64,000 nt of DNA from the NCBI GenBank assembly GCA_945946655.1, contig CAMEWM010000004.1, forward strand, positions 1,809 to 65,808, written 5' to 3'. The position numbers and the translations under genes are program-made. Source of the DNA: an uncultured Clostridium sp. (lineage in GTDB: Bacteria; Bacillota; Clostridia; TANB77; CAG-508). The notes below the pieces were generated by a model. It ran no database searches. It had not been told where the DNA came from and worked only from the letters and a program-made list of their open reading frames with translations. Positions 11,626-41,015 of the stretch are shown here, piece by piece; position 1 is the first letter of the stretch; the number at the start of each line of letters is the position of its first letter.

Positions 11626-11701
11626 TGGCAGGGGTACTAAGATTCGAACTCAGACTTGTGGTTTTGGAGACCATCGTGCTAACCATTGACACTATACCCC
11701 T
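11626..11701 (-). tRNA. trnW: tRNA-Trp (anticodon CCA)
   Basis: Hand-folded cloverleaf. Acceptor stem AGGGGTA/TACCCCT, D stem GTGT/GCAC, anticodon loop CTCCAAA, T arm CTGAG-TTCGAAT-CTTAG, discriminator G and encoded CCA. Confidence 0.9.
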
Positions 11702-11797
11702 ATTTGACTTTATTATAATAGCATAAAATATAGAAATGTGCAATACTAATTTCAAAAAATATAAAAAAGAAAAGTATAGTTTAATATTATAAAATAA

Positions 11798-11826
11798 TAG
11801 ACTTTATCAATAAAATGTTGTATAAT
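11798..11826 (+). promoter_or_regulatory. Promoter candidate for ssrA
   Basis: TAGACT (11798-803), a 17-nt spacer, then TATAAT (11821-26), 10 nt before the mature tmRNA 5' end. Confidence 0.4.
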
Positions 11827-11836
11827 AATAACATAT

Positions 11837-12202
11837 GGGGATGTATTTGGTTTTCGACAGTATCCCAGAAGTATATATAGCGAGTAGTGGATGGCTGCTT
11901 CGGCCACTATAAAAAAGCAGAACTAAAAATAAACGCTGATAATAATAGAGAATTAGCATACGCTGCCTAAGCTTAGGTAGCTCGTCTTACTAGGAAGGCC
12001 TACGGTCTTGGTTAAGGCGTCAATTAGTAGGATAACAAAGCTACTTTTGCTATTGAAGTAGTAGGTATTTTTAATAGCTACTCTAAAATTACGGTTGTTT
12101 GTTAATGTGATTTTAGGGGAATACAAGAATAACAAACTGCACTCGGAGAAGTATATATGGAAAGAATATTGGACAGGAGTTCGACTCTCCTCATCTCCAC
12201 CA
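11837..12202 (+). ncRNA. ssrA: tmRNA (SsrA)
   Basis: 5' GGGGATG pairs with 3' CATCTCC-A-CCA, including the G3:U alanine identity pair. T-arm GGAGTTCGACTCTCC. Internal tag reading frame at 11935-11970 encodes ADNNRELAYAA followed by a stop. Confidence 0.92.
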
Positions 12203-28394: not shown

Positions 28395-28400
28395 ATTGCA

Positions 28401-28436
28401 ATAGAGCAAATAGCAAAACTATTTGCTCTATTTTTG
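28401..28436 (+). terminator. Rho-independent terminator after rny
   Basis: Stem atagagcaaatag/ctatttgctctat followed by T5. Confidence 0.8.
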
Positions 28437-28521
28437 TTATATAAATGTAAGAAAAAATTAATATAATTGTAACAAAAAAATATATAAAATGTTATATAAT
28501 AAAAACATAATATAGTATATT

Positions 28522-29559
28522 ATGGAGAATTATATGAATATATCAAGAGATTTAGAGAAAATAGGGATATTTCCTAAAGAAGAATTAAGGATAGAAGAGA
28601 AAAACAGAATAGCAAGAGATGTTACAGAAAAGTTATGTTCAAACTTAAAAGAACTATATGATTGCTACAATGAATTGTATATGAGATTATTTAACTGTGA
28701 TATGTATTATGCTGATGTGCATGAAAAGTTTGGAGATGTATTTTATTATTATAAAAATAATACTATATATATAGATAGTAAAAAAGATATTTCTAATATA
28801 GATTCATATATGATTCATGAAACTATACATTATCTACAAAACTTCAGCAAAATAAATAAAGATAAAGAATCAAATAGAGCCGGAATATGTCAATTTATGG
28901 AATTTAAATTATTTGGCTTAGGAATAAATGAGGCAATAGTTCAGTATATTACAGCTAAAGCTCTAGGAAATAAAATACACAGAATTAACAATGAAGCAAT
29001 AACTATAGCAACAAATAGCGAAAACTATTATAAATATATGACAAGCTTAGTTGGACAAATATTATTATTAATAGGAGAAAAAGAAGCAATAGAGAGTTGC
29101 TTAAATAGTACAGAAAATTTTGAAAATAAATTATATAACACATTTGAAGAAAATACAGATAAGATAGTAAAGAATTTTGATTTAATATTAGAGGAAAATA
29201 ATAAAAATGACAGAGATGAGTCGAAAATTATAGAAATATATATGCAAACACAAGAACTAATATATACAACATACTTTACTAAAATGTGTAAAAGATTAAC
29301 GACAATAAAAGAAGTAGATACAGAAGTAGAAAAATTAGAAAATTACAGTAATATAGTAGGAAGACTATTAGAAACAACTATTGAAGAAGATAAATTTAAG
29401 AACTTTAAAAAAGATATGGAAAGTAAATTCCTAAAAAAGTATATTGAAATCAACAAAAATCAATCAAGAAATTCATTAACGATTGTATACAAAAATTTTA
29501 TTAACAATCTGTGGAATAAAATAATAAGTTTTTTCCAAAGTAAAATAATAAAAAATTAA
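28522..29559 (+). CDS. Hypothetical protein with HExxH zincin-like motif
   Basis: 345-aa ORF. YMIHETIHYLQ contains HExxH, with a possible third ligand Glu in GINEAIVQY. No family recognised. The alternative start is 28534. Confidence 0.4.
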   Translation: MENYMNISRDLEKIGIFPKEELRIEEKNRIARDVTEKLCSNLKELYDCYNELYMRLFNCDMYYADVHEKFGDVFYYYKNNTIYIDSKKDISNIDSYMIHETIHYLQNFSKINKDKESNRAGICQFMEFKLFGLGINEAIVQYITAKALGNKIHRINNEAITIATNSENYYKYMTSLVGQILLLIGEKEAIESCLNSTENFENKLYNTFEENTDKIVKNFDLILEENNKNDRDESKIIEIYMQTQELIYTTYFTKMCKRLTTIKEVDTEVEKLENYSNIVGRLLETTIEEDKFKNFKKDMESKFLKKYIEINKNQSRNSLTIVYKNFINNLWNKIISFFQSKIIKN

Positions 29560-29569
29560 ATATATAAAC

Positions 29570-29601
29570 AAAAAATCCAACTCAGTAAGAGTTGGATTTT
29601 T
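29570..29601. terminator. Bidirectional terminator between convergent genes
   Basis: aaaaaatccaactc-agta-agagttggatttttt, with A/T runs on both sides. Confidence 0.75.
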
Positions 29602-29921
29602 TAGAAGAAGAATTTTATAAAATTAAGTGTAAATATTGAAATAGCGATTCTCCATATATTTTTAAAAGTTTTTACCACAACATTTTTAACAATAGATAAA
29701 CTGTAATCCTTTTTGACTGTTAAAGCCAAACAGTTAACAACCTCAGAAGATTCATTTTCCTGAGTTGTTCGTTCTTCTTGAATAGTATTATCTAAATTTG
29801 TTACATTTTTATCTGATGTATTTTCTTGCTCAACATTATCAGTATTATCTAATGTTTGGTCTAAATCATTAAGTTTTTCAGATTCTACATCGATTTCGGT
29901 CTTATTTGGTGAATCTACCAT
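29601..29921 (-). CDS. Hypothetical protein (acidic N-terminal half, hydrophobic C-terminal tail)
   Basis: 106-aa ORF sharing a bidirectional terminator with the upstream convergent gene. No recognisable family and weak coding evidence. Confidence 0.3.
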   Translation of the reverse strand: MVDSPNKTEIDVESEKLNDLDQTLDNTDNVEQENTSDKNVTNLDNTIQEERTTQENESSEVVNCLALTVKKDYSLSIVKNVVVKTFKNIWRIAISIFTLNFIKFFF

Positions 29922-30268
29922 AATTCGAATCCTTCCTTTGTTAGTTTAATTAGATTATAACATAGTGCAAAAAAAAGTCAATAAAAATTTTTTTATAAAA
30001 TATTTTGAAACTAACGGCAAATTTCGTCAATATCTAATAAAAAATACATAAAACACTTATGTAAACCCAAAAAACGATGCTTATTTTAATGAAAAATGCG
30101 AAATTATATTGCAAAATAAGGAATTTTGTGATATAACTATGTATGTATTTTTCTAGGTACATAAATTTTCCAAATAAGGAGTATTTTACATTATTTGGAA
30201 TAATATGTATTAGATATTATAAATAAACATCTAGTAAGATGAAATCTATTTTTTAGAAAGGGGAAAAT

Positions 30269-31270
30269 ATGAAAAAATCAACAATCAAATTAGTAGCATT
30301 TGGAATGTTGGTATTAATGCTACTATCAATTTTCACAGTGCCAGTTAAGGCAGAAACTTATGAGAAAGTCGTATTAAAAAAAGCAAACAAAGAATTCTTA
30401 ATATATTATAAAGATATTTGTAATGATGAATTTGAGTTCGCTTTTTCTTTGGATAAGAGCCAACCAACAGACGACTTGTTTACAAGATCAGCTAAAGACC
30501 AAGCAGATGAGGGTGCTTTAGATGTAGCTTATATAGACGCAACATTGTATGACACATATTTTGCTACAAACAAAGCTTACATCTGGATAAGAGATAACAA
30601 CGATCAAATGGTTGTTTCAGCAGACTTAGTTGATTTAACAGATGCTCTAAATGATGGAATGATAGAGCTAGTTAACAATACTACAAAAAGGATTGATGTA
30701 GATACTACACAAACTCATGAAACACATGAGATAGTTGACGGAGTAGATACAACAATAACAACAGGTAAAGTAGTAGTTGATGAAAAGAGTGGAGCTAAAT
30801 ATTCATATACTTTAACAAGATTAACTGATACTACTACAAAAGCTAACAAATTATTTGAATTAGCAGAAGCATTAAAAGAGGATATAAGTGACACGTATAC
30901 AAACTTAAGCTTAAGTAAACAATTCTATGACTTATATATGGAGTTAATGCCAACAGATTCTGAATGGACAGAAGTAGAAAATTCAGAAATATTACAACCA
31001 GACAATACTGTTGAAGGAGATAAATACATAGTATATCTTAAAGAAGAAACAGCTGACAGTACAACAGTAGATGCAAAATTCTTAACATGTGTATACAAAG
31101 CAGATGAAGGCGTTGACCAGAAAGAAGAAACTATTACAGAAACTGTAAAATTACCAGTTACATTTGATAGTGGAACAATTTTGTTTATCATATTAGGAAT
31201 TATAGTTTTAGCTTTAGTTATATTTGCAATAATTAGAGTAAAAGCAAATAAAAAAGACGAGAACAAATAA
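30269..31270 (+). CDS. Secreted surface protein with sorting-signal-like C-terminus (LPVTF - hydrophobic helix - basic tail)
   Basis: Signal peptide MKKSTIKLVAFGMLVLMLLSIFTVPVKA. The C-terminus is KLPVTFDSG-TILFIILGIIVLALVIFAII-RVKANKKDENK. SD aaagggg upstream. A sortase gene starts 2 nt after its stop. Confidence 0.6.
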   Translation: MKKSTIKLVAFGMLVLMLLSIFTVPVKAETYEKVVLKKANKEFLIYYKDICNDEFEFAFSLDKSQPTDDLFTRSAKDQADEGALDVAYIDATLYDTYFATNKAYIWIRDNNDQMVVSADLVDLTDALNDGMIELVNNTTKRIDVDTTQTHETHEIVDGVDTTITTGKVVVDEKSGAKYSYTLTRLTDTTTKANKLFELAEALKEDISDTYTNLSLSKQFYDLYMELMPTDSEWTEVENSEILQPDNTVEGDKYIVYLKEETADSTTVDAKFLTCVYKADEGVDQKEETITETVKLPVTFDSGTILFIILGIIVLALVIFAIIRVKANKKDENK

Positions 31271-31272
31271 TT

Positions 31273-31863
31273 ATGAAAGAGAAAATTTACAATTTTATAA
31301 TTCTTGTTTTAGTTATTGCACTAATAGTAGTACTTGCTATGATAATCATAAAATATGGTGGCAATTACAAAAATGAAAAAGAAGTATCAGCAACATTAAC
31401 TACATTAGAGCAAGAACTTGAAAATAGATCTTCAGAAGATGAAGAGGAAATACTAGATGTAGAATATAAAGGGTATAAAATAGAAGGAATTATTGAAATT
31501 CCGAAGATTAATATCAAATATCCGATAATAAATCAAACTAACGAAGAAACAATGAAACTATCTGTTACAAAGTTCTGGGGACCACAAGCAAACGAGATTG
31601 GAAACTATACGATAGCAGGACATAATAATAGAGATGGAACAATGTTTGGAAAAACTAAATATTTACAAATTGGGGACATTATAAAATTAACCAATTTAAA
31701 AAACGAAACAATAGAATACACAGTTTTTAAAATCTATTCAATAGATCCAGACGACGTATCATGTGTGGAAAGTGTAGAACCGGGAACACGTGAAATAACT
31801 TTAATAACATGCACAAATGGACACAAGAATAGATTAGTAACTAAAGCAAGGCAAAATATATAG
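31273..31863 (+). CDS. Sortase (small, class D/C-like)
   Basis: 196 aa with an N-terminal TM. Catalytic His context YTIAGHNNRDGTMFG, Cys in ITLITCT and conserved Arg in KNRLV. Confidence 0.85.
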   Translation: MKEKIYNFIILVLVIALIVVLAMIIIKYGGNYKNEKEVSATLTTLEQELENRSSEDEEEILDVEYKGYKIEGIIEIPKINIKYPIINQTNEETMKLSVTKFWGPQANEIGNYTIAGHNNRDGTMFGKTKYLQIGDIIKLTNLKNETIEYTVFKIYSIDPDDVSCVESVEPGTREITLITCTNGHKNRLVTKARQNI

Positions 31864-31872
31864 TTTATTAAT

Positions 31873-34800
31873 ATGGGGGTAAAAAAATTGAAAGCGAAGA
31901 TTAATTATAAGAGTAGGAAAACCATTATAATTATAGCTATAGCAGTAATCTTAGTAATAGCAGCAATCGCAGGTACAGTTGCATTCATAAAAGGTAACAA
32001 TAATGCAGCCGCTGCAATGCCAGAAGACGAGCAAACAACAATAGGAGATGCTCAAAATAATAATGGTGGAGATGCTAATCAAAATGGTGGAAATCCTAGT
32101 GAAAATCCTAGCGATAATCCACAAACTGAATTACCAGCAGTAGATGCTAATAATGATGGAACAACTACTGCAGGAAATGATGGTACCGTAACAGGAAATA
32201 ATGGTACTACAGGTACTACAAATGGTGGTACTACAACAAATGGAAATGGAACAGGAACAACTGCAGGTACAACAACAGGTACAGCAGGAACAGGTGCTAC
32301 AGTTCCAAACCAAGACTATACACAAACAACAACAGTAATAACAGAAAATCCTTGGGAAACAAAAACAATAGGATGGAGTCCTTTAAGCATATCAGCTTAC
32401 ACAGCTGCTGCTAATTTAGGAATAAACAAACCAGAATTATCAACTGAAAAATTAGCTTATGTACAAGGAGATTCTCTAACAGAAGCACCTGTACATACAG
32501 CAATTCAAAAGGGTGAAGTAATTACATATGTAATAAAAGTTACAAACAAAGGTAACTTAGATGCTACAAGCATTCGTACAATAGATACAGTACCAGAAGG
32601 TACAGAACTAGTAGAAGGTTCTATTACAGCAAATGGAACTGAAAGTAATGGAAAAATAACTTGGAAAACAGACATAAAAGCAGGAAAACCTGTAGAACTA
32701 TCATTCCAAGTAAAAGTTGTTGCAGATTCAATAGATATTATTGAAAACACTGCAAAAGTAAATGGAACAGAAACACCTACAACACAAAATCCAATTATAA
32801 CAAGTGCCAAACAAGCAAGTGTTGTAATATTAAAAGATGGGGAAGAAGCTCTAGAAGATAGAGATGCAAAAGTTGGAGAAACAATTAGATATACAATAAC
32901 AGCAATAAATAAATCAGAAGTTGATGGTACAACAAGTATAACAGATAAAGCACCAGAAGGAACAACTTATGTAAAAAAGTCTGCAAGTGAAGGTGCAGTA
33001 GTTGCAGATGATGGCACAATCACATGGGAAAAAGTAACAGTACCAGCAGGAAAAGAAGCTACAGTAAGCTTTGACGTAACAGTAAATCAAGATACAAAAA
33101 CAAGCGTAACAAATATTGCAGTTGTTGGAGATACAGAAACACCAGAAACAAAAACAAAAGTAGCCAATATAACAACAACAAAATCAAGTGTAGGAATAAG
33201 AAATGGACAACAATTAGAGCAAGGTGCAACATTACATGAATTTGATGTAATAGAATATACATTAACAGCTACAAATAGCGGAAACGGTGAAGGTTCAGTT
33301 GTTATATCAGATAAAGTACCAGAAGGAACAACACTAGTACCAGGAAGCATAAAATTAGATGGAACAGGCTCATATGATGAGGACGATTTAAATAATGGAA
33401 TAACAGTATTAGTAGCAACAACACCAAGAAGAGTAACATTCAAAGTAACAGTAAACAAATTAACTGAGGCTGAAGTGCACATCAAAAATGAAGTTGCAAA
33501 ACAAGATGGCACAACTATAACGCCAGGTACAGACGATAAAGTAGAGAAAGAATATGTTACAGTAACAGCAAACAAAGACTTTGTTGATAACAATGGCGTA
33601 GATGGCAAGAGACCTGCTAGCGTAGAGCTAGAACTATATGCAGATGGCAAGACAACAGGCAAAACAGCTACAACAGATGCTAACTGGAAAGTTGAATTTA
33701 CTCAATTAGACAAATATACAGAAGCTGGAAAATTAATAAAATATTCTGTAAAAGAAAATAATGTAAATGAATATTATAAAGATACTTACAGTACTCCAGA
33801 AGTTGAAGGAAACCATACAACAATTAAGGTTACAAATACATTGAAATATGAAATGATAACGAGATCTGTAGAAGCAACAAAAGTATGGGATGATGGAGAC
33901 AATAAAGCAGGAGTAAGACCTGATAGTGTAGAATTTGAATTATATGCAGATAATGCTACAACAAACAAGACACAAACAGTAAGTAAAGTTGAAGATAGCA
34001 ATGAATGGAAGACAACATTTGAAGGCGTAAATAAATACACATCAGCTGGAAAAGAAATAGTATATTCTGTAAAAGAAACAACAACACCAGCACACTATAA
34101 TAAACAAGAAAATGGTTTAACAGTAACAAACAAAATTGATTATACATCAATACCAACTAAAGAAACTGCAACTAAGAGTTGGGATGATGCAGACAATGCA
34201 AATAGACCTTCTGAAGTAGTAATTGGAGCATATAATGGAAGTGAAACTCCAGTTAAAACTGCAAAAGCAAATGCTGGAAATAACTGGACAGCAACATTTG
34301 AAGGACTACAAAAATATACAGCTGAAGGTAAAAAAATAGAATATACATTTAAAGAAGTAACAGTTCCAGAGGGATATGTTGCAACAGTAAAAGATAATGT
34401 TATAACAAATGCTTTACCAAGAATTGAAGTTACAAAAACAGTAAAATCAATAAATGGTGAAGATGCAACAACAGTAAATAGTAGTACTGTAAAAGAAAAT
34501 GATATTATAGAATATCAAATAACAGTAAAAAATACTGGTTCAGTTACAGTAAATAATATTACAGTAACAGAAAGCCTAAATGTATATTTAGACGCAAATA
34601 AACCAGATGAGAAGACAACATCGGTTGGAACAATTTCAGAATTAAAAGCAAATGAACCTCAATCATTCACAGTTTACTATAAAGTAGTTGCTGAAGATGT
34701 AGATAATGTTAATGAAAACTTAGTAAACGTTGCAACAGCAACAGGTAAATATACTGATGGAAACGGCAACGAAAAAGATGTAACAGGTGAAGGTAGAATA

Positions 34801-37800
34801 TCAGTTACTCCAACAGAAATAAATGACTTAAGTATTACAAAATCTCAAAAAGTAAATGGAGAAGACGTAACAGATAATACAGAGGTAGTACCAGGAAATG
34901 TAATTACTTATACAATAATAGTAAAGAATACAGGAAACACAGTATTAAACAATGTAGAAGTAACAGATTCAATGTTAACAAATTCTAACTTTGTATTAAC
35001 AGATAATGGTGGATTTACATTAGAAAATGGAAAATTAAAAATTGCTTCATTAGCTCTTAATGAAACAAAAACAATAACTGCAAAATATACAGTACAAGAA
35101 TCTGATATGAGTACAACAGTAGGAACAATAGCTAATACAGCTACTGCAAAATCAGATAAAGCACCAGAAGAGTCTTCAGAGGTTGAAGTACCAACAGAAG
35201 CTTGGTATGCAGATATTTCTACTACAAAAAGAAGTGATGGAACACATGCAGATGGTACAGCTGTAAGTGCAGCTAGCCCATTACATGAGTTAGATACAAT
35301 CACATATACATTAACTGCAACAAATAATGGTACAGATGATGGAACAGTTAAATTATCAGATACAGTTCCAACTGGAACAACACTAGTAGCAAACAGCATT
35401 AGACTAGAAGGTGTAGACACTCCATATACAGAAACACAATTAAATAATGGAATAGAAGTACATTTAAATGCTGGAGAAAATAAGAAATTAACATTTAGTG
35501 TAACAATCAATCCATTTGAAACAGAAACTATAAATATTGTAAATGATACTGCTACACAAGATGGAACACCAATATCAGGAACAACTGATACAGTAGTAAA
35601 AGAATATACTAGTGTTACAGTAAACAAAACTTGGGTTGATAATGCAACACAAGCACAAAGAAGACCTGACAAAATAAGATTTGAATTATATGCAGATAAT
35701 AATGAGCCAATGCTTTACTACGATATGAGCAAAACAGAAAGTTCATATACTTTTGATAAGTTATCAAAATATAATTCAGATGGAACAACTATAACATATA
35801 CAATTCAGGAAAAAGAAATTAATACAGGAGACTTAAAATTCTACACATCAGTAGTAGGTAATCCTACTGTAGATGCTAATGGTAAGACATATAATGTTAC
35901 AAATACATTTACAGTACCACAAGTTACAAAAAATGTACCAGTTATAAAAGTATGGGACGATAACAATAATGCTGCAGGTAAGAGACCTGATTCTGTAACA
36001 ATAGAATTAAATGGAGAACCTGTAGAATTAACAGCAAGCAATGCAAGTAATGCAGACGGAAATAAATGGTCTAAAATACTAGAAAAACCTGTATATAACG
36101 AAAATGGAAAAGAAATTATTTACACATTAACAGAAAATAATGTACCACAATGGTATGAAGAATCAGTAAATAATGATCAATATAAAGTAACAAATACATT
36201 TAAGGCTCCAACAGATCAAACATATGGCATAACTATAATAAAGGTTTGGGACGATAAAGGAAATGTAGCAGGTAAGAGACCAACAAGCATTAAATTAACA
36301 TTAAACAAAATTGATGTAGCTGGAAATACTGTAAAAGTTGAAGATTTAACTCTAACAGGAAATTCTAAAGCAGAACAATGGACAGCAACAGAAAATGTTC
36401 AAAAATATGATGAAAAAGCAAATGAAATTAAATATTTTGTAACAGAAGAAAGTACAGGTTCAATGTTCTATGTAAATACTGATACAGATACAACAGACTT
36501 AACAGTAACAAATAAATTTGTTGTTCCAAATGACAAGGCAGAGCTAACAGTAAGAAAAATATGGAATGATAATAATAACACATCAAAGAGAACCCCAGTA
36601 ACAATTAGAGTTACAGGAAATGGCAAATCAGAAGATGTGACATTAACAAGTAACAATGCAAATGCTAATAATGGAAACGTTTGGGAGAGAACTGTTACAG
36701 CTACTACATTACCAAAATATGATAATTTAGGAGAAATAATAAATTACAGCTATGATGAAGTAACTGTTCCAACAGGATACATTAGAACAGTAAAAGGAAA
36801 TGAGATAACAAACTCATTACCAGGAATAAAAGTTACAAAAACAGTTGAAAAAGTAAATGACCAAAGTATGAATGGAGTTAACCAAATAACTGTAAAAGAA
36901 AATGATGTTATAGAATACCTAATAACAGTAGAAAATCTTGGAACAGTTGAGTTAACAAATGTAAATATAACTGACAATTTAGATGTATACACAGATACAA
37001 CAAAACCAGAAACTACAACAAAAACATTATTAACTAATGGAAAATTAGCTGTAGGAGAACCAAAAACATACACTGTATATTATAAAGTTAGTGCAAATGA
37101 TGTAAAAGTTGGAGGTCAAACTTTAACAAATACAGCAACTGCAACAGGAAACTATACAGACTCAAATGAAAAACCACAAACAATAACAGGTACTGACTCT
37201 GCAGATGTTACAATAGCAGATGCACCAGGAGTTAGCATTGTAAAATCTCAAAAGGTAAATGGAAAAGAAGTAACAACTAATACAAAGGTAGTACCAGGTG
37301 ATGTGATTACTTATACAATTACAGTAACCAACACTGGAAATATAGTATTAAATAATGTAACAGTAACAGATTCAATGACAGGAAAAGAAGGATTTACAAT
37401 TACAAGTGGAAGCCTAAATATTGGAACACTAGGAATTGCTCCTAACAATGTTGTGACAATAACAGCAACATATACAGTAAAAGAATCTGACATGCAAGAG
37501 AAAGAAAGCAAAATTGCAAATACAGCAACTGTTAAGACATCTTCAACACCAGATGGTTCTTCAACAGTTGAGGTACCAACAGAAGCTTGGTATGCAGATA
37601 TAAATGTTACAAAATCTAGTAAATTAATCAAGAATAAAACGCTTGGAAATAAAATAGCTGGTAAAGCTGAATATGGCGATACAATTAAATATACAATAAC
37701 AGCAACAAATAGCGGTAAAAAAGCTGGAACAGTTGTTGTAAAAGATACAGCACCAGAAGGAACAACACCAGTAGAAAGTGATATTTATACAGCTATATCA

Positions 37801-38895
37801 TCAGAAAATGGATACTCATTAGATGTACCAGCAAAAGGAACAGCATCAGTAAGCTTTGATGTAACTGTTACATCAAAACCAACAACTACAATTACAAATA
37901 CTGCAAAAGTAGATGGAAATCCAGTAACAGATCCAGAAACGCACCAAGTTGAAAAATCAGTTTCAGTTAAGATGACACCACAGATTCCAACGATTAAAAA
38001 CAGTAATGTTGTAATAGTACTAGACATTTCAGGAAGTATGAATAATACACCAGAGGGAAATCCAACATGGTATTCAACGGAAACTCGTTTATATGCTGCT
38101 AAACAAGCATGTAATAGCTTTATAGATGCCATGTTCAAAGATGATGCAACAGGATGCAAGGTTTCAGTAGTAACATTTAGTTCGGGTACAAGATGGGGAC
38201 AATATGTTGACAATGCAGAGACAATAGGTACAGCAACAAGTAGTACTGAAGCAACAACTTTAAAGAATAAAATTAGTAGATTAAGTGCAAATGGTGGAAC
38301 ACGTATTGCTGCAGGTATAAATCAAGCAAATACAGAAATAAACAAATTAGCAGAAAATAATAATAATAAGAATATTGTTATAGTATTAAGTGATGGTGAC
38401 TTTACGATTGGTAGCGATAAAGATGGAACTATCATAAATAGTGGTAACGAAACAAAGACAAGAGTAGAAACAGCTTCAACAAATTTGAAAAATAGTGCTT
38501 GTAAGCCAACAGTATATGCAGTAGCATTTGCTTCAAGCCAATCTGGACTAATGCAAAACACAATAGCATCAGATGCTAATAATACATTTAAAACAGCTAG
38601 TAATTATTCAACCTTATTAAAAATATTTAATGAAATAGGTTCAGAGCTAGGCGAAGATGAAATACAAGATGTAGCATCAGTAAATGGATTAATAGAATTA
38701 CCTGGATTAGATGCAAGTGAAGACGTAACAATAAAACTAAATGGAGATACAACTGGAACAACAGGCAAAGTTTCAGCATTTGTAGATAAGATTGTACAAA
38801 ATCAAGATACTGGAGTATACTATTTAGACACAACTCAATTTGATGCTGACGCAAAAATTGAAATAGAATATTTCGAAGTTCAATCACAAAGCTAA
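31873..38895 (+). CDS. Giant (2340 aa) surface adhesin: N-terminal TM/signal, G/T/N-rich linker, multiple DUF11-type and Cna-B-type Ig-like domains, C-terminal VWA domain
   Basis: DUF11-like blocks (VITYTIIVKNTGN..., YTLTATNSGN...), Cna-B-like blocks (KVWDDxxNxAGxRPDSVxxELY...), and a VWA MIDAS VVIVLDISGSM at 38023-38037. There is no LPXTG-type C-terminus. The alternative start is TTG at 31888. Confidence 0.85.
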   Translation: MGVKKLKAKINYKSRKTIIIIAIAVILVIAAIAGTVAFIKGNNNAAAAMPEDEQTTIGDAQNNNGGDANQNGGNPSENPSDNPQTELPAVDANNDGTTTAGNDGTVTGNNGTTGTTNGGTTTNGNGTGTTAGTTTGTAGTGATVPNQDYTQTTTVITENPWETKTIGWSPLSISAYTAAANLGINKPELSTEKLAYVQGDSLTEAPVHTAIQKGEVITYVIKVTNKGNLDATSIRTIDTVPEGTELVEGSITANGTESNGKITWKTDIKAGKPVELSFQVKVVADSIDIIENTAKVNGTETPTTQNPIITSAKQASVVILKDGEEALEDRDAKVGETIRYTITAINKSEVDGTTSITDKAPEGTTYVKKSASEGAVVADDGTITWEKVTVPAGKEATVSFDVTVNQDTKTSVTNIAVVGDTETPETKTKVANITTTKSSVGIRNGQQLEQGATLHEFDVIEYTLTATNSGNGEGSVVISDKVPEGTTLVPGSIKLDGTGSYDEDDLNNGITVLVATTPRRVTFKVTVNKLTEAEVHIKNEVAKQDGTTITPGTDDKVEKEYVTVTANKDFVDNNGVDGKRPASVELELYADGKTTGKTATTDANWKVEFTQLDKYTEAGKLIKYSVKENNVNEYYKDTYSTPEVEGNHTTIKVTNTLKYEMITRSVEATKVWDDGDNKAGVRPDSVEFELYADNATTNKTQTVSKVEDSNEWKTTFEGVNKYTSAGKEIVYSVKETTTPAHYNKQENGLTVTNKIDYTSIPTKETATKSWDDADNANRPSEVVIGAYNGSETPVKTAKANAGNNWTATFEGLQKYTAEGKKIEYTFKEVTVPEGYVATVKDNVITNALPRIEVTKTVKSINGEDATTVNSSTVKENDIIEYQITVKNTGSVTVNNITVTESLNVYLDANKPDEKTTSVGTISELKANEPQSFTVYYKVVAEDVDNVNENLVNVATATGKYTDGNGNEKDVTGEGRISVTPTEINDLSITKSQKVNGEDVTDNTEVVPGNVITYTIIVKNTGNTVLNNVEVTDSMLTNSNFVLTDNGGFTLENGKLKIASLALNETKTITAKYTVQESDMSTTVGTIANTATAKSDKAPEESSEVEVPTEAWYADISTTKRSDGTHADGTAVSAASPLHELDTITYTLTATNNGTDDGTVKLSDTVPTGTTLVANSIRLEGVDTPYTETQLNNGIEVHLNAGENKKLTFSVTINPFETETINIVNDTATQDGTPISGTTDTVVKEYTSVTVNKTWVDNATQAQRRPDKIRFELYADNNEPMLYYDMSKTESSYTFDKLSKYNSDGTTITYTIQEKEINTGDLKFYTSVVGNPTVDANGKTYNVTNTFTVPQVTKNVPVIKVWDDNNNAAGKRPDSVTIELNGEPVELTASNASNADGNKWSKILEKPVYNENGKEIIYTLTENNVPQWYEESVNNDQYKVTNTFKAPTDQTYGITIIKVWDDKGNVAGKRPTSIKLTLNKIDVAGNTVKVEDLTLTGNSKAEQWTATENVQKYDEKANEIKYFVTEESTGSMFYVNTDTDTTDLTVTNKFVVPNDKAELTVRKIWNDNNNTSKRTPVTIRVTGNGKSEDVTLTSNNANANNGNVWERTVTATTLPKYDNLGEIINYSYDEVTVPTGYIRTVKGNEITNSLPGIKVTKTVEKVNDQSMNGVNQITVKENDVIEYLITVENLGTVELTNVNITDNLDVYTDTTKPETTTKTLLTNGKLAVGEPKTYTVYYKVSANDVKVGGQTLTNTATATGNYTDSNEKPQTITGTDSADVTIADAPGVSIVKSQKVNGKEVTTNTKVVPGDVITYTITVTNTGNIVLNNVTVTDSMTGKEGFTITSGSLNIGTLGIAPNNVVTITATYTVKESDMQEKESKIANTATVKTSSTPDGSSTVEVPTEAWYADINVTKSSKLIKNKTLGNKIAGKAEYGDTIKYTITATNSGKKAGTVVVKDTAPEGTTPVESDIYTAISSENGYSLDVPAKGTASVSFDVTVTSKPTTTITNTAKVDGNPVTDPETHQVEKSVSVKMTPQIPTIKNSNVVIVLDISGSMNNTPEGNPTWYSTETRLYAAKQACNSFIDAMFKDDATGCKVSVVTFSSGTRWGQYVDNAETIGTATSSTEATTLKNKISRLSANGGTRIAAGINQANTEINKLAENNNNKNIVIVLSDGDFTIGSDKDGTIINSGNETKTRVETASTNLKNSACKPTVYAVAFASSQSGLMQNTIASDANNTFKTASNYSTLLKIFNEIGSELGEDEIQDVASVNGLIELPGLDASEDVTIKLNGDTTGTTGKVSAFVDKIVQNQDTGVYYLDTTQFDADAKIEIEYFEVQSQS
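34408..35235 (+). repeat. Intragenic super-repeat copy 1 inside the giant adhesin gene (two DUF11-type domains)
   Basis: Protein segment NALPRIEVTKTV...EVPTEAWYADISTTK parallels NSLPGIKVTKTV...EVPTEAWYADINVTK. A 28-nt identical DNA core gtaccaacagaagcttggtatgcagata lies at 35188-35215. Confidence 0.8.
36811..37625 (+). repeat. Intragenic super-repeat copy 2 inside the giant adhesin gene
   Basis: Parallel to copy 1 throughout. The 28-nt identical core lies at 37573-37600. Confidence 0.8.
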
Positions 38896-38906
38896 AAATA
38901 TAAAAA

Positions 38907-38937
38907 AATATGAGCTAGAAATAGCTCATATTTTTTT
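38907..38937 (+). terminator. Rho-independent terminator after the giant adhesin gene
   Basis: Stem aatatgagcta/tagctcatatt with loop gaaa, followed by T7. Confidence 0.8.
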
Positions 38938-38953
38938 AACAGAAATCATAAAT

Positions 38954-38997: not shown

Positions 38998-39507
38998 TTA
39001 TTCAATAGAAATTTTATAATCTTTAACTTCTGATAAATCACTGGTGCATAATACTCTATACGTTGTCTCAGAATTTGCAGTTATTTCTGGAATAGTTAAA
39101 GGCATTCCAAAAATTATATTACCTTCTGAATCAAGAGCATAGAAGTGAGCCTTAGTTTCCTTAGAAGTTGTATCAGATGAGTTCCTAAAATGGATTTCTA
39201 TTATAGAAGAATCCTTGTTAGAAGTAGAAATATTTATGCCAGTAATACTTATTGATTCTAAGCCTTCTACATTTTTTGTATCTGAGATACTATTAGAAGA
39301 AACAGGCTTAAATTCAGAATCATCTGATTTTTGCTTAGCAATAGAAGCTGGAACATACCTATAAGCTACATATACTAAGACTGATAAAATTAGAATAATT
39401 AAAAATACAATAAAGAACTTTTTAAAATTAAATCGTTTTTCTTCTTTAAATCTTTTACTTGTAGATTTATGAGAATGATTATCTACCATTCTTTTACCTT
39501 TTGCCAT
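38998..39507 (-). CDS. Hypothetical N-terminally membrane-anchored protein
   Basis: 169 aa with a basic N-terminus, one TM (FFIVFLIILILSVLVYVAY) and a beta-rich ectodomain. SD ggggag upstream and a terminator downstream. Confidence 0.5.
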   Translation of the reverse strand: MAKGKRMVDNHSHKSTSKRFKEEKRFNFKKFFIVFLIILILSVLVYVAYRYVPASIAKQKSDDSEFKPVSSNSISDTKNVEGLESISITGINISTSNKDSSIIEIHFRNSSDTTSKETKAHFYALDSEGNIIFGMPLTIPEITANSETTYRVLCTSDLSEVKDYKISIE

Positions 39508-39707: not shown

Positions 39708-41015
39708 ATGAATATTTTGCAAAGATTTATACTGAAAAAGTTAATAGAATGGAAAGAAAGTAAATATAGAAAACCTCTTATATTAAAGGGTGCTAGACAA
39801 GTTGGAAAAACTTATATTTTAAAGCAATTTGGAAAAGAAAATTATGAAGGTGTTGCGTATTTCAATTTTGATCATGATGAAGATTTATATAATCTATTTC
39901 AAAACACTAAAGATCCTAAAAGAATATTGGAGCAATTAGCATTTATATATGGAAAAGCAATTATTCCAGGTAAAACATTAATAATTTTTGATGAAATACA
40001 AGAATGCCCAAATGCATTAAATTCTTTAAAATATTTTTATGAAGAAGCGAACGAATATCACATTGCATGTGCTGGAAGCTTATTAGGAATTAGATTATCA
40101 CATACATCATTTCCAGTTGGAAAAGTTGATTTTTTAAATATGTACCCAATGACATTTAGCGAGTTTTTAATAGCAGATAATGCACAGAATCTAGTAGACT
40201 ACATGAATTCACTAGAAAAAATAGAAAAAATTCCAGACATATTCTTTAATCAACTAGAAGAAAAATTAAAAGCTTACTTTATAATTGGCGGCATGCCAGA
40301 AGCAGTTTCTGCTTGGGTAAATGAAAAAGATATGGAACTCGTTAACAAAATTCAAGACAATATATTAAGTGCATACGAAAGTGATTTTTCAAAACATACA
40401 CAGGATAGCGAAGCAAATAAAATATCATTAATTTGGAATAGCGTTCCATCCCAACTTGCAAAAGAAAATAAAAAGTTCTTGTATCAAGTTGTAAAAGAAG
40501 GTGCTAGAGCAAGAGAATATGAAAATGCTTTAAATTGGTTAAATGATGCAAACCTTATTTATAAAATTTATAATGTAACAAAAACAGACTTTCCTTTAAA
40601 AGCATACAACGATTTATCAGCATTTAAAATATATATGAATGATGTAGGGCTTTTAAGAAAAATGTCAAATTTAGATAGTAAAATTGTTGTAGAGGGAGAT
40701 AAATTATTTGAGGAATTTAAAGGCGCTTTTACAGAAAATTATGTATTAAATATGTTGATATCTACATTAAATTCGGTACCAAATTATTATACATTTGATA
40801 GAAATGAAATTGATTTTGTAATTCAATTCAAAAACAATATAATTCCAATAGAAGTAAAGGCAAATAAATCAACTAACAGTACAAGTTTAACAAAATATAA
40901 TGAAAAATTTAACAATGAAATATCAGTTAGATTTTCTATGAATAATCTATCAAAAGATGGAAAAATTCTTAACATACCATTATTCTTAATAGAATATGTG
41001 GAAAAATTTATATAA
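39708..41015 (+). CDS. AAA+ ATPase (AAA_14-type) with C-terminal DUF4143 / PD-(D/E)xK-like segment
   Basis: Walker A GARQVGKT and Walker B LIIFDEIQ. C-terminal EIDFVIQFKNNIIPIEVKA fits D...ExK. SD aaggag abuts ATG 39708, so TTG at 39717 may be the real start. Confidence 0.75.
   Translation: MNILQRFILKKLIEWKESKYRKPLILKGARQVGKTYILKQFGKENYEGVAYFNFDHDEDLYNLFQNTKDPKRILEQLAFIYGKAIIPGKTLIIFDEIQECPNALNSLKYFYEEANEYHIACAGSLLGIRLSHTSFPVGKVDFLNMYPMTFSEFLIADNAQNLVDYMNSLEKIEKIPDIFFNQLEEKLKAYFIIGGMPEAVSAWVNEKDMELVNKIQDNILSAYESDFSKHTQDSEANKISLIWNSVPSQLAKENKKFLYQVVKEGARAREYENALNWLNDANLIYKIYNVTKTDFPLKAYNDLSAFKIYMNDVGLLRKMSNLDSKIVVEGDKLFEEFKGAFTENYVLNMLISTLNSVPNYYTFDRNEIDFVIQFKNNIIPIEVKANKSTNSTSLTKYNEKFNNEISVRFSMNNLSKDGKILNIPLFLIEYVEKFI

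Follow-up and report, generated by a model that had tools for sequence, protein, structure and literature searches.

A 64-kb stretch of DNA from an uncultured Clostridium sp. (contig CAMEWM010000004.1; hereafter the window, whose numbering we use throughout) encodes a conserved surface module of three genes, for a small protein whose sorting signal is unusual, for a sortase, and for a giant adhesin with no sorting signal. In the reading that we favor, if with some reserve, the sortase is dedicated to the small protein and would fix it to the cell wall, and the giant would be an adhesin of reversed polarity that is held by its N-terminus and is possibly docked on the small protein. As far as the sequences tell, what seems to be new is a dedicated sortase/substrate pair with an unusual natural signal, obligatorily coupled to a signal-less adhesin with reversed polarity.

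The three open reading frames (ORFs) are on the plus strand (Table 1). They are separated by 2 nucleotides (nt) between genes 1 and 2 and by 9 nt between genes 2 and 3, counting from the annotated ATG of gene 3. The ORF coordinates and gaps in a preliminary description of this DNA proved correct at every position.

We found the order small protein, sortase, giant in 28 of 28 species loci, as far as each contig permits. The scan that gave these loci required T[FY] in the sorting motif, and variants with Gly were checked separately. The three genes were also found together in two Gly-variant loci, L029 (LPITGDS) and L039 (LPVTGES); of the cassette, another Gly-variant contig, L040, includes just the small-protein gene and the start of a sortase gene. 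In every locus, the sortase gene follows the small-protein gene, and the linkage of the cassette is kept despite different flanking genes. With this order repeated in each of the 28 species loci, the arrangement is not due to chance.

The sorting signal of the small protein

The gene 1 protein ends with a true tripartite sorting signal: LPVTFDSG, a hydrophobic stretch of 20 residues, and RVKANKKDENK at the extreme C-terminus. The preliminary description had reported these three parts, and its coordinates for them are exact. Residues 302–329 form a helix in the predicted structure. We checked all of the ORFs in the window, and gene 1 is the only one with a tail of this type.

The window protein has LPVTF instead of the canonical LPXTG pentapeptide. 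No Pfam or NCBIfam family matches the protein, and the models for LPXTG signals score below their cut-offs (PF00746, 14.9 versus 20; TIGR01167, 12.5 versus 15.9). These sub-threshold scores may explain why one near-identical NCBI record is named "hypothetical."

A word-indexed search for homologs listed at least 120 relatives, all of them at least 96% identical, which is uninformative about the conservation of the motif. Searching exhaustively among representatives at 50% identity (E ≤ 1e-3), we obtained a family of at least 245 clusters. For motif statistics, we used the best 150 of the 245 clusters, of which 130 have the C-terminal tripartite signal. Among these 130 members, the Pro of the motif is invariant (130/130), the Thr is present in 128, the Leu is present in 123, and the third position is Val or Ile. 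The residue after the Thr is Tyr in 59 cases, Gly in 44, and Phe in 21, so it is Tyr or Phe in 80 of 130. The next position is Asp (111) or Glu (17), and the one after that is often Ser (in 77 members) or Asn (in 33). As a consensus, the family has L-P-[V/I]-T-[Y/G/F]-[D/E]-[S/N], after which come a transmembrane helix and a basic tail.

In a neighbor-joining tree of 112 members, built with the tail excluded, the position after the Thr switched at least 17 times among Gly, aromatic, and other residues. (If the tips of the same tree are shuffled, the mean is 38 changes.) Given these switches and the mixture of Tyr, Gly, and Phe, the position is a labile part of the leaving group in which Phe is one of the permitted states; the motif is not specific for Phe. 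The preliminary description had made its reading depend on the conservation of LPVTF among homologs: LPxT is kept, but the Phe itself is not conserved.

The structure of the small protein was predicted with AlphaFold2, using 46 family members, with a predicted local distance difference test (pLDDT) score of 89. The model has two β-sandwich domains and a helical hairpin, a disordered linker that bears LPVTF, and a transmembrane helix. Foldseek with this model returned only generic FnIII/Ig-like matches (template modeling score of ~0.2), and no pilin, CnaA/B, or cohesin. Also, no Lys is invariant among the 46 members. One family representative, P0240 (540 aa), resembles a fusion of the small protein and the sortase, or a read-through product; its C-terminus is ...REITLLTCTNGRKERLIIKAIEII.

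The sortase is compact, lid-less, and outside the named class models

Gene 2 encodes a member of the sortase superfamily. It has an N-terminal transmembrane helix (residues ~8–27), a short linker, and a catalytic domain (residues 71–193). The His/TLITC/Arg triad that had been noticed earlier corresponds to His117 (AGHN; nt 31621–31623), Cys180 (TLITC; nt 31810–31812), and Arg187 (nt 31831–31833). Both the triad and the N-terminal helix are conserved in 24 aligned orthologs. Across these 24 aligned sequences, the enzymes are 49–98% identical to the window's sortase, and the substrates are 31–96% identical, so the enzyme is by far the better conserved of the two.

The preliminary description had suggested classifying the enzyme with hidden Markov models. 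Gene 2 scores above the cut-offs for the generic sortase models (PF04203, E = 1e-26, 93.6 bits versus 26.6; TIGR01076, 70.5 versus 39.35) and below the cut-off for every class. The highest-scoring NCBIfam match for a named class is to class C (NF033745), at 64.9 bits versus a cut-off of 160. The scores for the other classes are 42.7 versus 165 (NF033746) and 57.5 versus 140 (NF058671, SrtD) for class D, 60.6 versus 160 for class E, 22.6 versus 153.75 for class B, 19.5 versus 166 for class F, and 26 versus 158.25 for GN.

The best match in the PDB is SrtD from Clostridium perfringens (4d70, E = 1.3e-12). SrtA from Listeria monocytogenes (5hu4) is second, and SrtA from Bacillus anthracis is also among the best matches. 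Gene 2 has no DP[W/F/Y] lid before the catalytic domain, which is the criterion for class C that we took from PMC4498605. It also has no C-terminal transmembrane helix: it ends with ...TKARQNI, with no second hydrophobic segment. In being lid-less, compact, and adjacent to its substrate, it has attributes in common with class D enzymes. SrtD from C. perfringens likewise has no lid, and its gene is in one operon with that of its own LPQTGS substrate (PMC4498605).

One of the related contigs carries another pair of this kind. At positions 1–999 of L040, a second, distinct sortase (211 aa) lies right after a protein that ends with ...PEMPKTG, a transmembrane helix, and KVYKK. This second pair adjoins secG and the gene for RNase R, and a gene for a small protein with LPVTGES is on the same contig. 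The MPKTG pair and the operon of C. perfringens SrtD suggest that enzymes and substrates are paired in a dedicated way, and the logic of one enzyme for one neighbor seems to fit these genomes.

Would a sortase accept an aromatic residue after the Thr? Class A sortases from L. monocytogenes, Streptococcus pneumoniae, and Streptococcus pyogenes act in vitro on peptides with LPATF and LPATY (PMC10763551), so by analogy, this seems chemically plausible.

The giant protein appears to be a fibrillar adhesin without a sorting signal

In the gene 3 protein, profile searches identified seven stretches of Cna_B, nine of DUF11/CLIPPER, six of DUF7507, and one VWA domain. The VWA and VWA_2 models score 49.2 and 56.1 bits, and the DxSxS, Thr, and Asp of the metal ion-dependent adhesion site (MIDAS) are all present in the sequence. 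This agrees with the preliminary description, which had arrays of DUF11-like and Cna-B-like domains and, at the C-terminus, a VWA domain whose DISGS motif is at 38023–38037. With its tandem stalk domains and an adhesive end domain, the giant looks like a fibrillar adhesin. The stalk includes a duplication of about 600 amino acids: residues 572–1176 (nt 33586–35400) and 1363–1971 (nt 35959–37785) are 43% identical. The only tandem repeat in the DNA of the gene is a trivial 21-nt array; the repetition is at the level of domains.

The annotated ATG of gene 3 (31873) has no ribosome-binding site. There is a TTG at 31888, preceded at a distance of 7 nt by a GGGGG run that resembles a Shine-Dalgarno sequence. 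Because gene calls in other strains use the TTG behind GGGGG, the true start is probably 31888. The gap to the sortase gene would then be 24 nt.

The giant's C-terminus, ...IEIEYFEVQSQS, has no LPxT-like motif, and its only hydrophobic segment is N-terminal (residues 12–43). The complete giants that we examined are from 13 species (1043–2166 aa), from L029, and from three strain variants. None of the 16 complete homologs has a C-terminal sorting signal or a C-terminal transmembrane helix; all of them end with a β-rich module, and other genes follow. The earlier statement that the giant lacks an LPXTG-like motif or hydrophobic tail is thus true of the window protein and of these homologs. Searches with Pfam and NCBIfam found no LPXTG, SLH, LysM, choline-binding, OmpA-like, or similar anchor domain in the giant.

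As for the N-terminus, the preliminary description mentioned only a transmembrane segment or signal. That segment is present, and it belongs to a larger conserved module in which an n-region and an AxA box precede a spacer and a peptide. In 24 giant sequences, both the n-region (K-x-[I/L]-N-Y-K-S-[K/R]-[K/R]) and the AxA box are conserved, with AAA↓M, AKA↓F, SLA↓S, TSA↓A, and ASA↓V as variants of the box. The spacer has 95 residues in the window protein and ~85–160 across the homologs. The peptide after the spacer has the consensus NVPNQ[D/E]Y...GW[S/A/N]P, and its Trp is invariant. We predicted the structure of residues 127–316 with AlphaFold2, using 13 database fragments. The first CLIPPER domain was predicted with a pLDDT of ~90. 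Residues 127–183, which include the conserved peptide, are predicted to be unstructured (pLDDT below 50) and lie outside this first folded domain.

Two other ideas about the N-terminal region were considered and set aside. Y-K-S-[KR]-[KR] in the n-region is reminiscent of YSIRK or KxYKxGKxW signals, but neither signal matched even at E ≤ 10 (Pfam with four giant N-termini and NCBIfam with three), and we treat the likeness as a lead only. Also, the spacer contains LPAVDAN (residues 87–93, nt 32131–32151), which resembles a sorting signal. The pattern [LIVAT]-P-x-x-[G/D]-[D/E/S/A]-[N/D/Q/E] occurs in the spacers of 11 of 28 giants (14 matches, versus ~0.5 expected by shuffling), with forms in L003, L006, L009, L011 (LPNTGEN), and L020 (LPVTGSD), and it is absent from the distant clade. 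We rejected LPxxG[DE]N as a second sortase site: it is found in 11/28 giants only, the pattern was defined post hoc, and the residue equivalent to Thr is mostly not Thr.

The distal end of the giant varies. Most homologs have VWA there, L017 has MucBP, and L010 has no recognized tip. There are at least three alternative types of C-terminal ends among strains and species. Strains that share an identical sortase have giants of 1517, 2158, and 2341 aa with two types of ends. In L031–L038, the end modules are ...IEIEYFEVQSQS and ...ILITYYVK; in L001, with a sortase 98% identical to that of the window, there is a third, ...YYIVRAD. Because the end modules differ among near-identical strains, this variation points to recombination or diversifying selection acting on the tip. 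Since the giant is constant at its N-terminus and variable at its distal end, its polarity appears to be reversed, with the constant N-terminus proximal to the cell and the variable C-terminus distal.

How the small protein and the giant might be attached

We propose three steps. In the first step, the small protein would be exported via its signal peptide, and its C-terminal helix and basic tail would keep it in the membrane. The neighboring, membrane-anchored sortase would read L-P-[V/I]-T-[Y/G/F]-[D/E]-[S/N], cut after Thr298, and transfer the protein to a peptidoglycan precursor. The residue after the Thr would be part of the leaving group, which would leave it free to be Tyr, Phe, or Gly. 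The enzyme and the substrate would form a dedicated pair, as do class D sortases and their neighboring substrates. We infer the cleavage at Thr298 and the transfer to peptidoglycan from the established chemistry of sortases, and we are fairly confident that the small protein is attached to the wall by its own sortase.

In the second step, the giant, which is not a donor substrate for the sortase, would act as a fibrillar adhesin with reversed polarity. We consider this quite probable.

In the third step, the giant would be kept at the cell via its N-terminus, with a long signal that is not cleaved and a 95-residue spacer that spans the wall. Alternatively, or in addition, the disordered peptide with Trp168 might dock on the wall-bound small protein; in that case, the small protein would form the fiber's base. 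The conserved n-region, AxA box, spacer, and disordered peptide are our reason for proposing N-terminal retention as well as reversed polarity. This retention by the N-terminus is uncertain, and the docking is a tentative proposal that we would not call likely. A more specific form of it, which we consider doubtful, is that a sortase naturally specific for LPxT plus an aromatic residue installs the base protein, and that the base protein captures the giant's disordered peptide by strand addition, conceivably with a spontaneous covalent bond like that of SpyTag and SpyCatcher. This would be a new mode of mounting an adhesin on the wall of a Gram-positive cell. If true, strains could freely swap the length of the stalk and the tip, with one constant socket.

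Several points weigh against this scheme. Some sortases cut in vitro after an aromatic residue that follows the Thr (PMC10763551). Because cleavage one residue later does occur in vitro, the scissile bond could be between Phe and Asp instead of between Thr and Phe. The conserved disordered peptide could equally serve in secretion, glycosylation, or binding to the wall. If the AxA box were cleaved and there were no docking, then the adhesin would be released. Finally, for the Gly variants, the cassette with a giant rests on two loci (L029, along with its short duplicate L030, and L039).

Alternative explanations

The layout resembles a pilus island, with a structural gene, a sortase, and a VWA protein, and the sortase might join Thr298 to an amine of the giant (a Lys side chain, or the N-terminus exposed when the signal peptide is removed) instead of sending the small protein to the wall, to form a covalent fiber of two proteins. 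The genes are tightly packed and co-transcribed, the giant is made of isopeptide-type, pilin-like domains, and class C is the top match among the named classes. Furthermore, most homologs of the giant have a Lys after the hydrophobic segment, in F-[IVT]-K-G-N. However, the class C score is far under its cut-off, and the enzyme has neither the lid nor the C-terminal helix. The Lys is missing from L023 and L025, the predicted N-terminus of the mature giant varies (M, F, S, V, A, or I), and the only invariant Lys in the N-terminal region is in the first strand of CLIPPER, where an intramolecular isopeptide bond is expected. The small protein lacks a pilin fold or an invariant Lys and hence cannot polymerize, and the product of the ligation would be left without an anchor in the wall. 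Ligation of the two proteins therefore seems unlikely to us. For the same reasons (no class C score, no lid, no C-terminal helix, no pilin fold, and no invariant Lys), we rejected a pilus model, and the analogy to pilus tips that the preliminary description drew from the VWA domain does not hold up.

If instead the sortase anchors the small protein only, then the giant might be released or loosely associated, and the operon might exist just for co-regulation. An AxA box like that of signal peptidase sites is conserved in all of the giants, and no known type of anchor is detectable in them, as this idea would predict. But the genes are linked in 28 species loci and two Gly-variant loci with different flanks, and a constant N-terminus with a conserved peptide outside any domain is not expected in a freely released protein. 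Also, at least 16 isopeptide-type stalk domains imply an attachment that bears load (as inferred from PMC12617251). We think that there is little chance that the giant is an independent neighbor. It is far less credible still that the locus is an artifact or is decaying, with the giant having lost an LPXTG tail by truncation, frameshift, or misassembly, or with the LPVTF tail being a mere membrane anchor. In 16 independent, complete homologs, the protein has no signal at its end and other genes come next; in the window, the giant gene is directly followed by a terminator-like hairpin. In favor of an artifact or decay, genes that are rich in repeats often break assemblies, several of the loci do end inside the giant gene, one long assembly has a frameshift, and PF00746 and TIGR01167 are below their cut-offs on the small protein. 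Against the idea of a mere membrane anchor, the residues of L-P-x-T are kept in all or nearly all members, canonical LPxTG occurs in a third of the family, and a sortase gene trails the small-protein gene in every locus.

Comparison with known systems

The window's sortase shares several attributes with the class D enzyme SrtD of C. perfringens (PMC4498605): a compact, lid-less form with an N-terminal transmembrane helix, an Arg seven residues after the Cys, a place next to a single substrate with a motif that differs from LPXTG after the Thr, and a spore-forming host. (Sporulation genes are near the cassette in the window.) In contrast to class D, the window's sortase falls short of both NCBIfam models for that class, the residue after the Thr is aromatic or Gly instead of Gly, Ala, or Ser, and the module is always coupled to a signal-less giant adhesin. 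Other class D sortases that neighbor their substrates include SrtC of B. anthracis, with BasH and BasI, and YhcS of Bacillus subtilis, with YhcR.

Pili with VWA tips also have a VWA domain with MIDAS on a stalk of CnaA/CnaB-type isopeptide domains, encoded near a sortase. The pilus tip adhesins RrgA, SpaC, and GBS104 carry a C-terminal LPXTG and act as donors. In contrast, the giant of this locus has no sorting signal, and the locus lacks a class C sortase, a lid, a shaft pilin, and a pilin-motif Lys. A shaft pilin has a CnaA/CnaB fold, a pilin-motif Lys, and a sorting signal of its own, and we found no Pfam pilin domain in the small protein.

In the usual fibrillar adhesin of Gram-positive bacteria, the adhesive domain is N-terminal and the LPXTG anchor is C-terminal. 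The giant differs in that its polarity appears to be reversed and it has no recognizable anchor. It does resemble the CLIPPER/CLIPPER_2/Cna_B adhesins in having the same families of tandem stalk domains, over 2000 aa, and an adhesive end domain (PMC12617251). DUF11 and DUF7507 are CnaA-like isopeptide domains that are typical of the stalks of fibrillar adhesins (PMC12617251).

The tolerance of class A sortases for LPxTF and LPxTY shows that the active site can accept an aromatic residue (PMC10763551), and one of these enzymes, L. monocytogenes SrtA, is our second-best match in the PDB. But that tolerance is promiscuity with peptides in vitro, and here, aromatic residues are a natural state of the family. 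For the third step only, there is an analogy to ScaE of Ruminococcus flavefaciens, a sortase-anchored docking protein that holds the scaffoldin ScaB. In both cases, a small, wall-anchored β-sandwich would support a very large protein that lacks an anchor of its own. Unlike that system, no similarity to cohesin or dockerin was found here with Pfam or Foldseek.

Searching the full text of the literature, we found no sortase article with LPXTY, LPXTF, LPVTF, LPITY, or LPVTY. We also found no description of this arrangement, in line with the earlier remark that it matches no described pilus or anchoring locus. A paper on a pilin from the order TANB77 describes a Tad-type pilus and never mentions a sortase (PMC11680825), so we rejected the idea that this "pilin" is the present locus.

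This family of natural sorting signals usually has an aromatic residue after the Thr, which we otherwise found only as promiscuity of class A enzymes in vitro. This makes the sortase of interest for the rules of specificity and as a possible tool for orthogonal ligation. The giant would be a conserved adhesin with isopeptide domains that needs a neighboring sortase system and yet is apparently not a sortase substrate itself. Predictions of surface proteomes that rely on LPXTG models miss both the small protein and the giant. The hosts are abundant, uncultured gut Clostridia with small genomes, and the TANB77 clade has been linked to the response to immunotherapy (PMC11680825). The variable VWA or MucBP tip is likely to be a determinant of binding to a host or partner and a strain marker.

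Hosts, expression, and gene neighborhood

The window has a G+C content of ~29% and encodes a transfer-messenger RNA (tmRNA) and sporulation genes. The cassette is located between rny and ymdB/recA; on the strain contigs, spoIIAA-spoIIAB-sigF-spoIID are upstream of it. Near-identical proteins derive from gut metagenomes, and one NCBI record gives a Clostridia metagenome-assembled genome as its source. The related loci are all from uncultured gut Clostridia, including Clostridium sp. CAG:245, and the genus CAG-245 is assigned to the uncultured order TANB77 (PMC11680825). An identical sortase is also encoded on a contig of 1.57 Mb. The sequencing runs that contain the locus are mostly from pig gut. 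The hosts of the module are low-GC, spore-forming, uncultured gut Clostridia that are relatives of CAG:245 and so probably belong to the order TANB77.

In two RNA-Seq runs from pig gut, contigs cover 30261–31862 and parts of 32088–33536, and one contig of 1432 nt crosses the junction of genes 1 and 2. The metatranscriptome contigs begin at ~30261–30292 and there is zero depth over 28400–30260, although depth in contigs is a rough measure and some DNA may have been carried over. The abrupt 5' edge of the coverage where gene 1 begins points to a transcript, and these data argue for the co-transcription of genes 1 and 2. We also considered a phase-variable, invertible promoter upstream of gene 1. 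We found only imperfect, AT-rich inverted repeats there (75–83%) and no strand-switch joints, so this idea is unsupported.

Hairpins flank the three-gene unit on both sides (Table 1).

Table 1. Features of the cassette and candidate accessory genes, in window coordinates.
Feature	Position	Strand	Description and basis
Candidate accessory pair	28522–29559 and 29601–29921	+ and −	345-aa cytoplasmic protein (+) and convergent 106-aa protein (−)
Hairpin, perfect 14 bp	29569–29603		Bidirectional, terminator-like; ends the upstream gene pair and delimits the unit on its 5' side
Intergenic leader/promoter region	29922–30268	+	AT-rich; strong ribosome-binding site AAAGGGG ahead of the gene 1 ATG
Gene 1, predicted sortase substrate	30269–31270	+	333 aa, unannotated family; sequence, family search, model
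Gene 1, signal peptide	30269–30352	+	Residues 1–28, ...VPVKA↓ETY; sequence; helix 2–21 in model
Gene 1, sorting motif	31151–31174	+	LPVTFDSG; LPVTF is residues 295–299, nt 31151–31165; sequence, family alignment
Gene 1, hydrophobic helix and basic tail	31175–31267	+	Residues 303–322, then RVKANKKDENK, residues 323–333; sequence, model
Gene 2, predicted sortase	31273–31863	+	196 aa; profiles, sequence
Gene 3, putative giant fibrillar adhesin	31873–38895	+	2340 aa from ATG; profiles, sequence
Gene 3, N-terminal signal/anchor	31873–32016	+	n-region, 23-residue hydrophobic core, AxA box AAA↓M (48/49); conserved
Gene 3, low-complexity spacer	32017–32301	+	G/T/N-rich, residues 49–143; sequence
Gene 3, conserved peptide	32302–32421	+	TVPNQDYTQTT...GWSPLSI, residues 144–183, invariant Trp168; alignment, model
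Gene 3, stalk	32422–37962	+	CLIPPER (DUF11), CLIPPER_2 (DUF7507), DUF7927, and Cna_B isopeptide-type domains; profiles; PMC12617251
Gene 3, VWA domain	38005–38631	+	MIDAS DISGS, residues 2051–2055, nt 38023–38037, then GGT and SDGD; profiles, sequence
Gene 3, C-terminal end module	38632–38892	+	β-rich, ~85 aa, ...IEIEYFEVQSQS, no sorting signal; sequence
Hairpin, 17 bp	38901–38938		Bidirectional, terminator-like; immediately 3' of the giant gene
Candidate accessory gene	38998–39507	−	169 aa, convergent with the giant gene; N-terminal transmembrane helix, extracellular domain; weak FxLYD-like match

Some neighboring genes recur with the cassette. The pair that encodes the 345-aa and 106-aa proteins is upstream of the cassette in L001–L014 and L039, and it is downstream of the giant gene in L017, L018, L021, L027, and L028. 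The 345-aa protein has no family match. We considered whether it could be an HExxH protease that acts on the giant and rejected this: HExxH (HETIH in the window) is present in 15 of 26 homologs and there is no signal peptide. The gene does stay linked to the cassette.

A homolog of the 169-aa protein is encoded at the same position in L006, L007, L029, and L031–L037, and L029 is otherwise flanked by different genes. Between the cassette and ymdB, at 39708–41015, there is a gene for a DUF4143/AAA_14 ATPase, which is also present in L007, L011, and L031–L037. Elsewhere in the window (11626–12202), a tRNA-Trp gene on the minus strand adjoins the tmRNA gene, whose tag peptide is ADNNRELAYAA.

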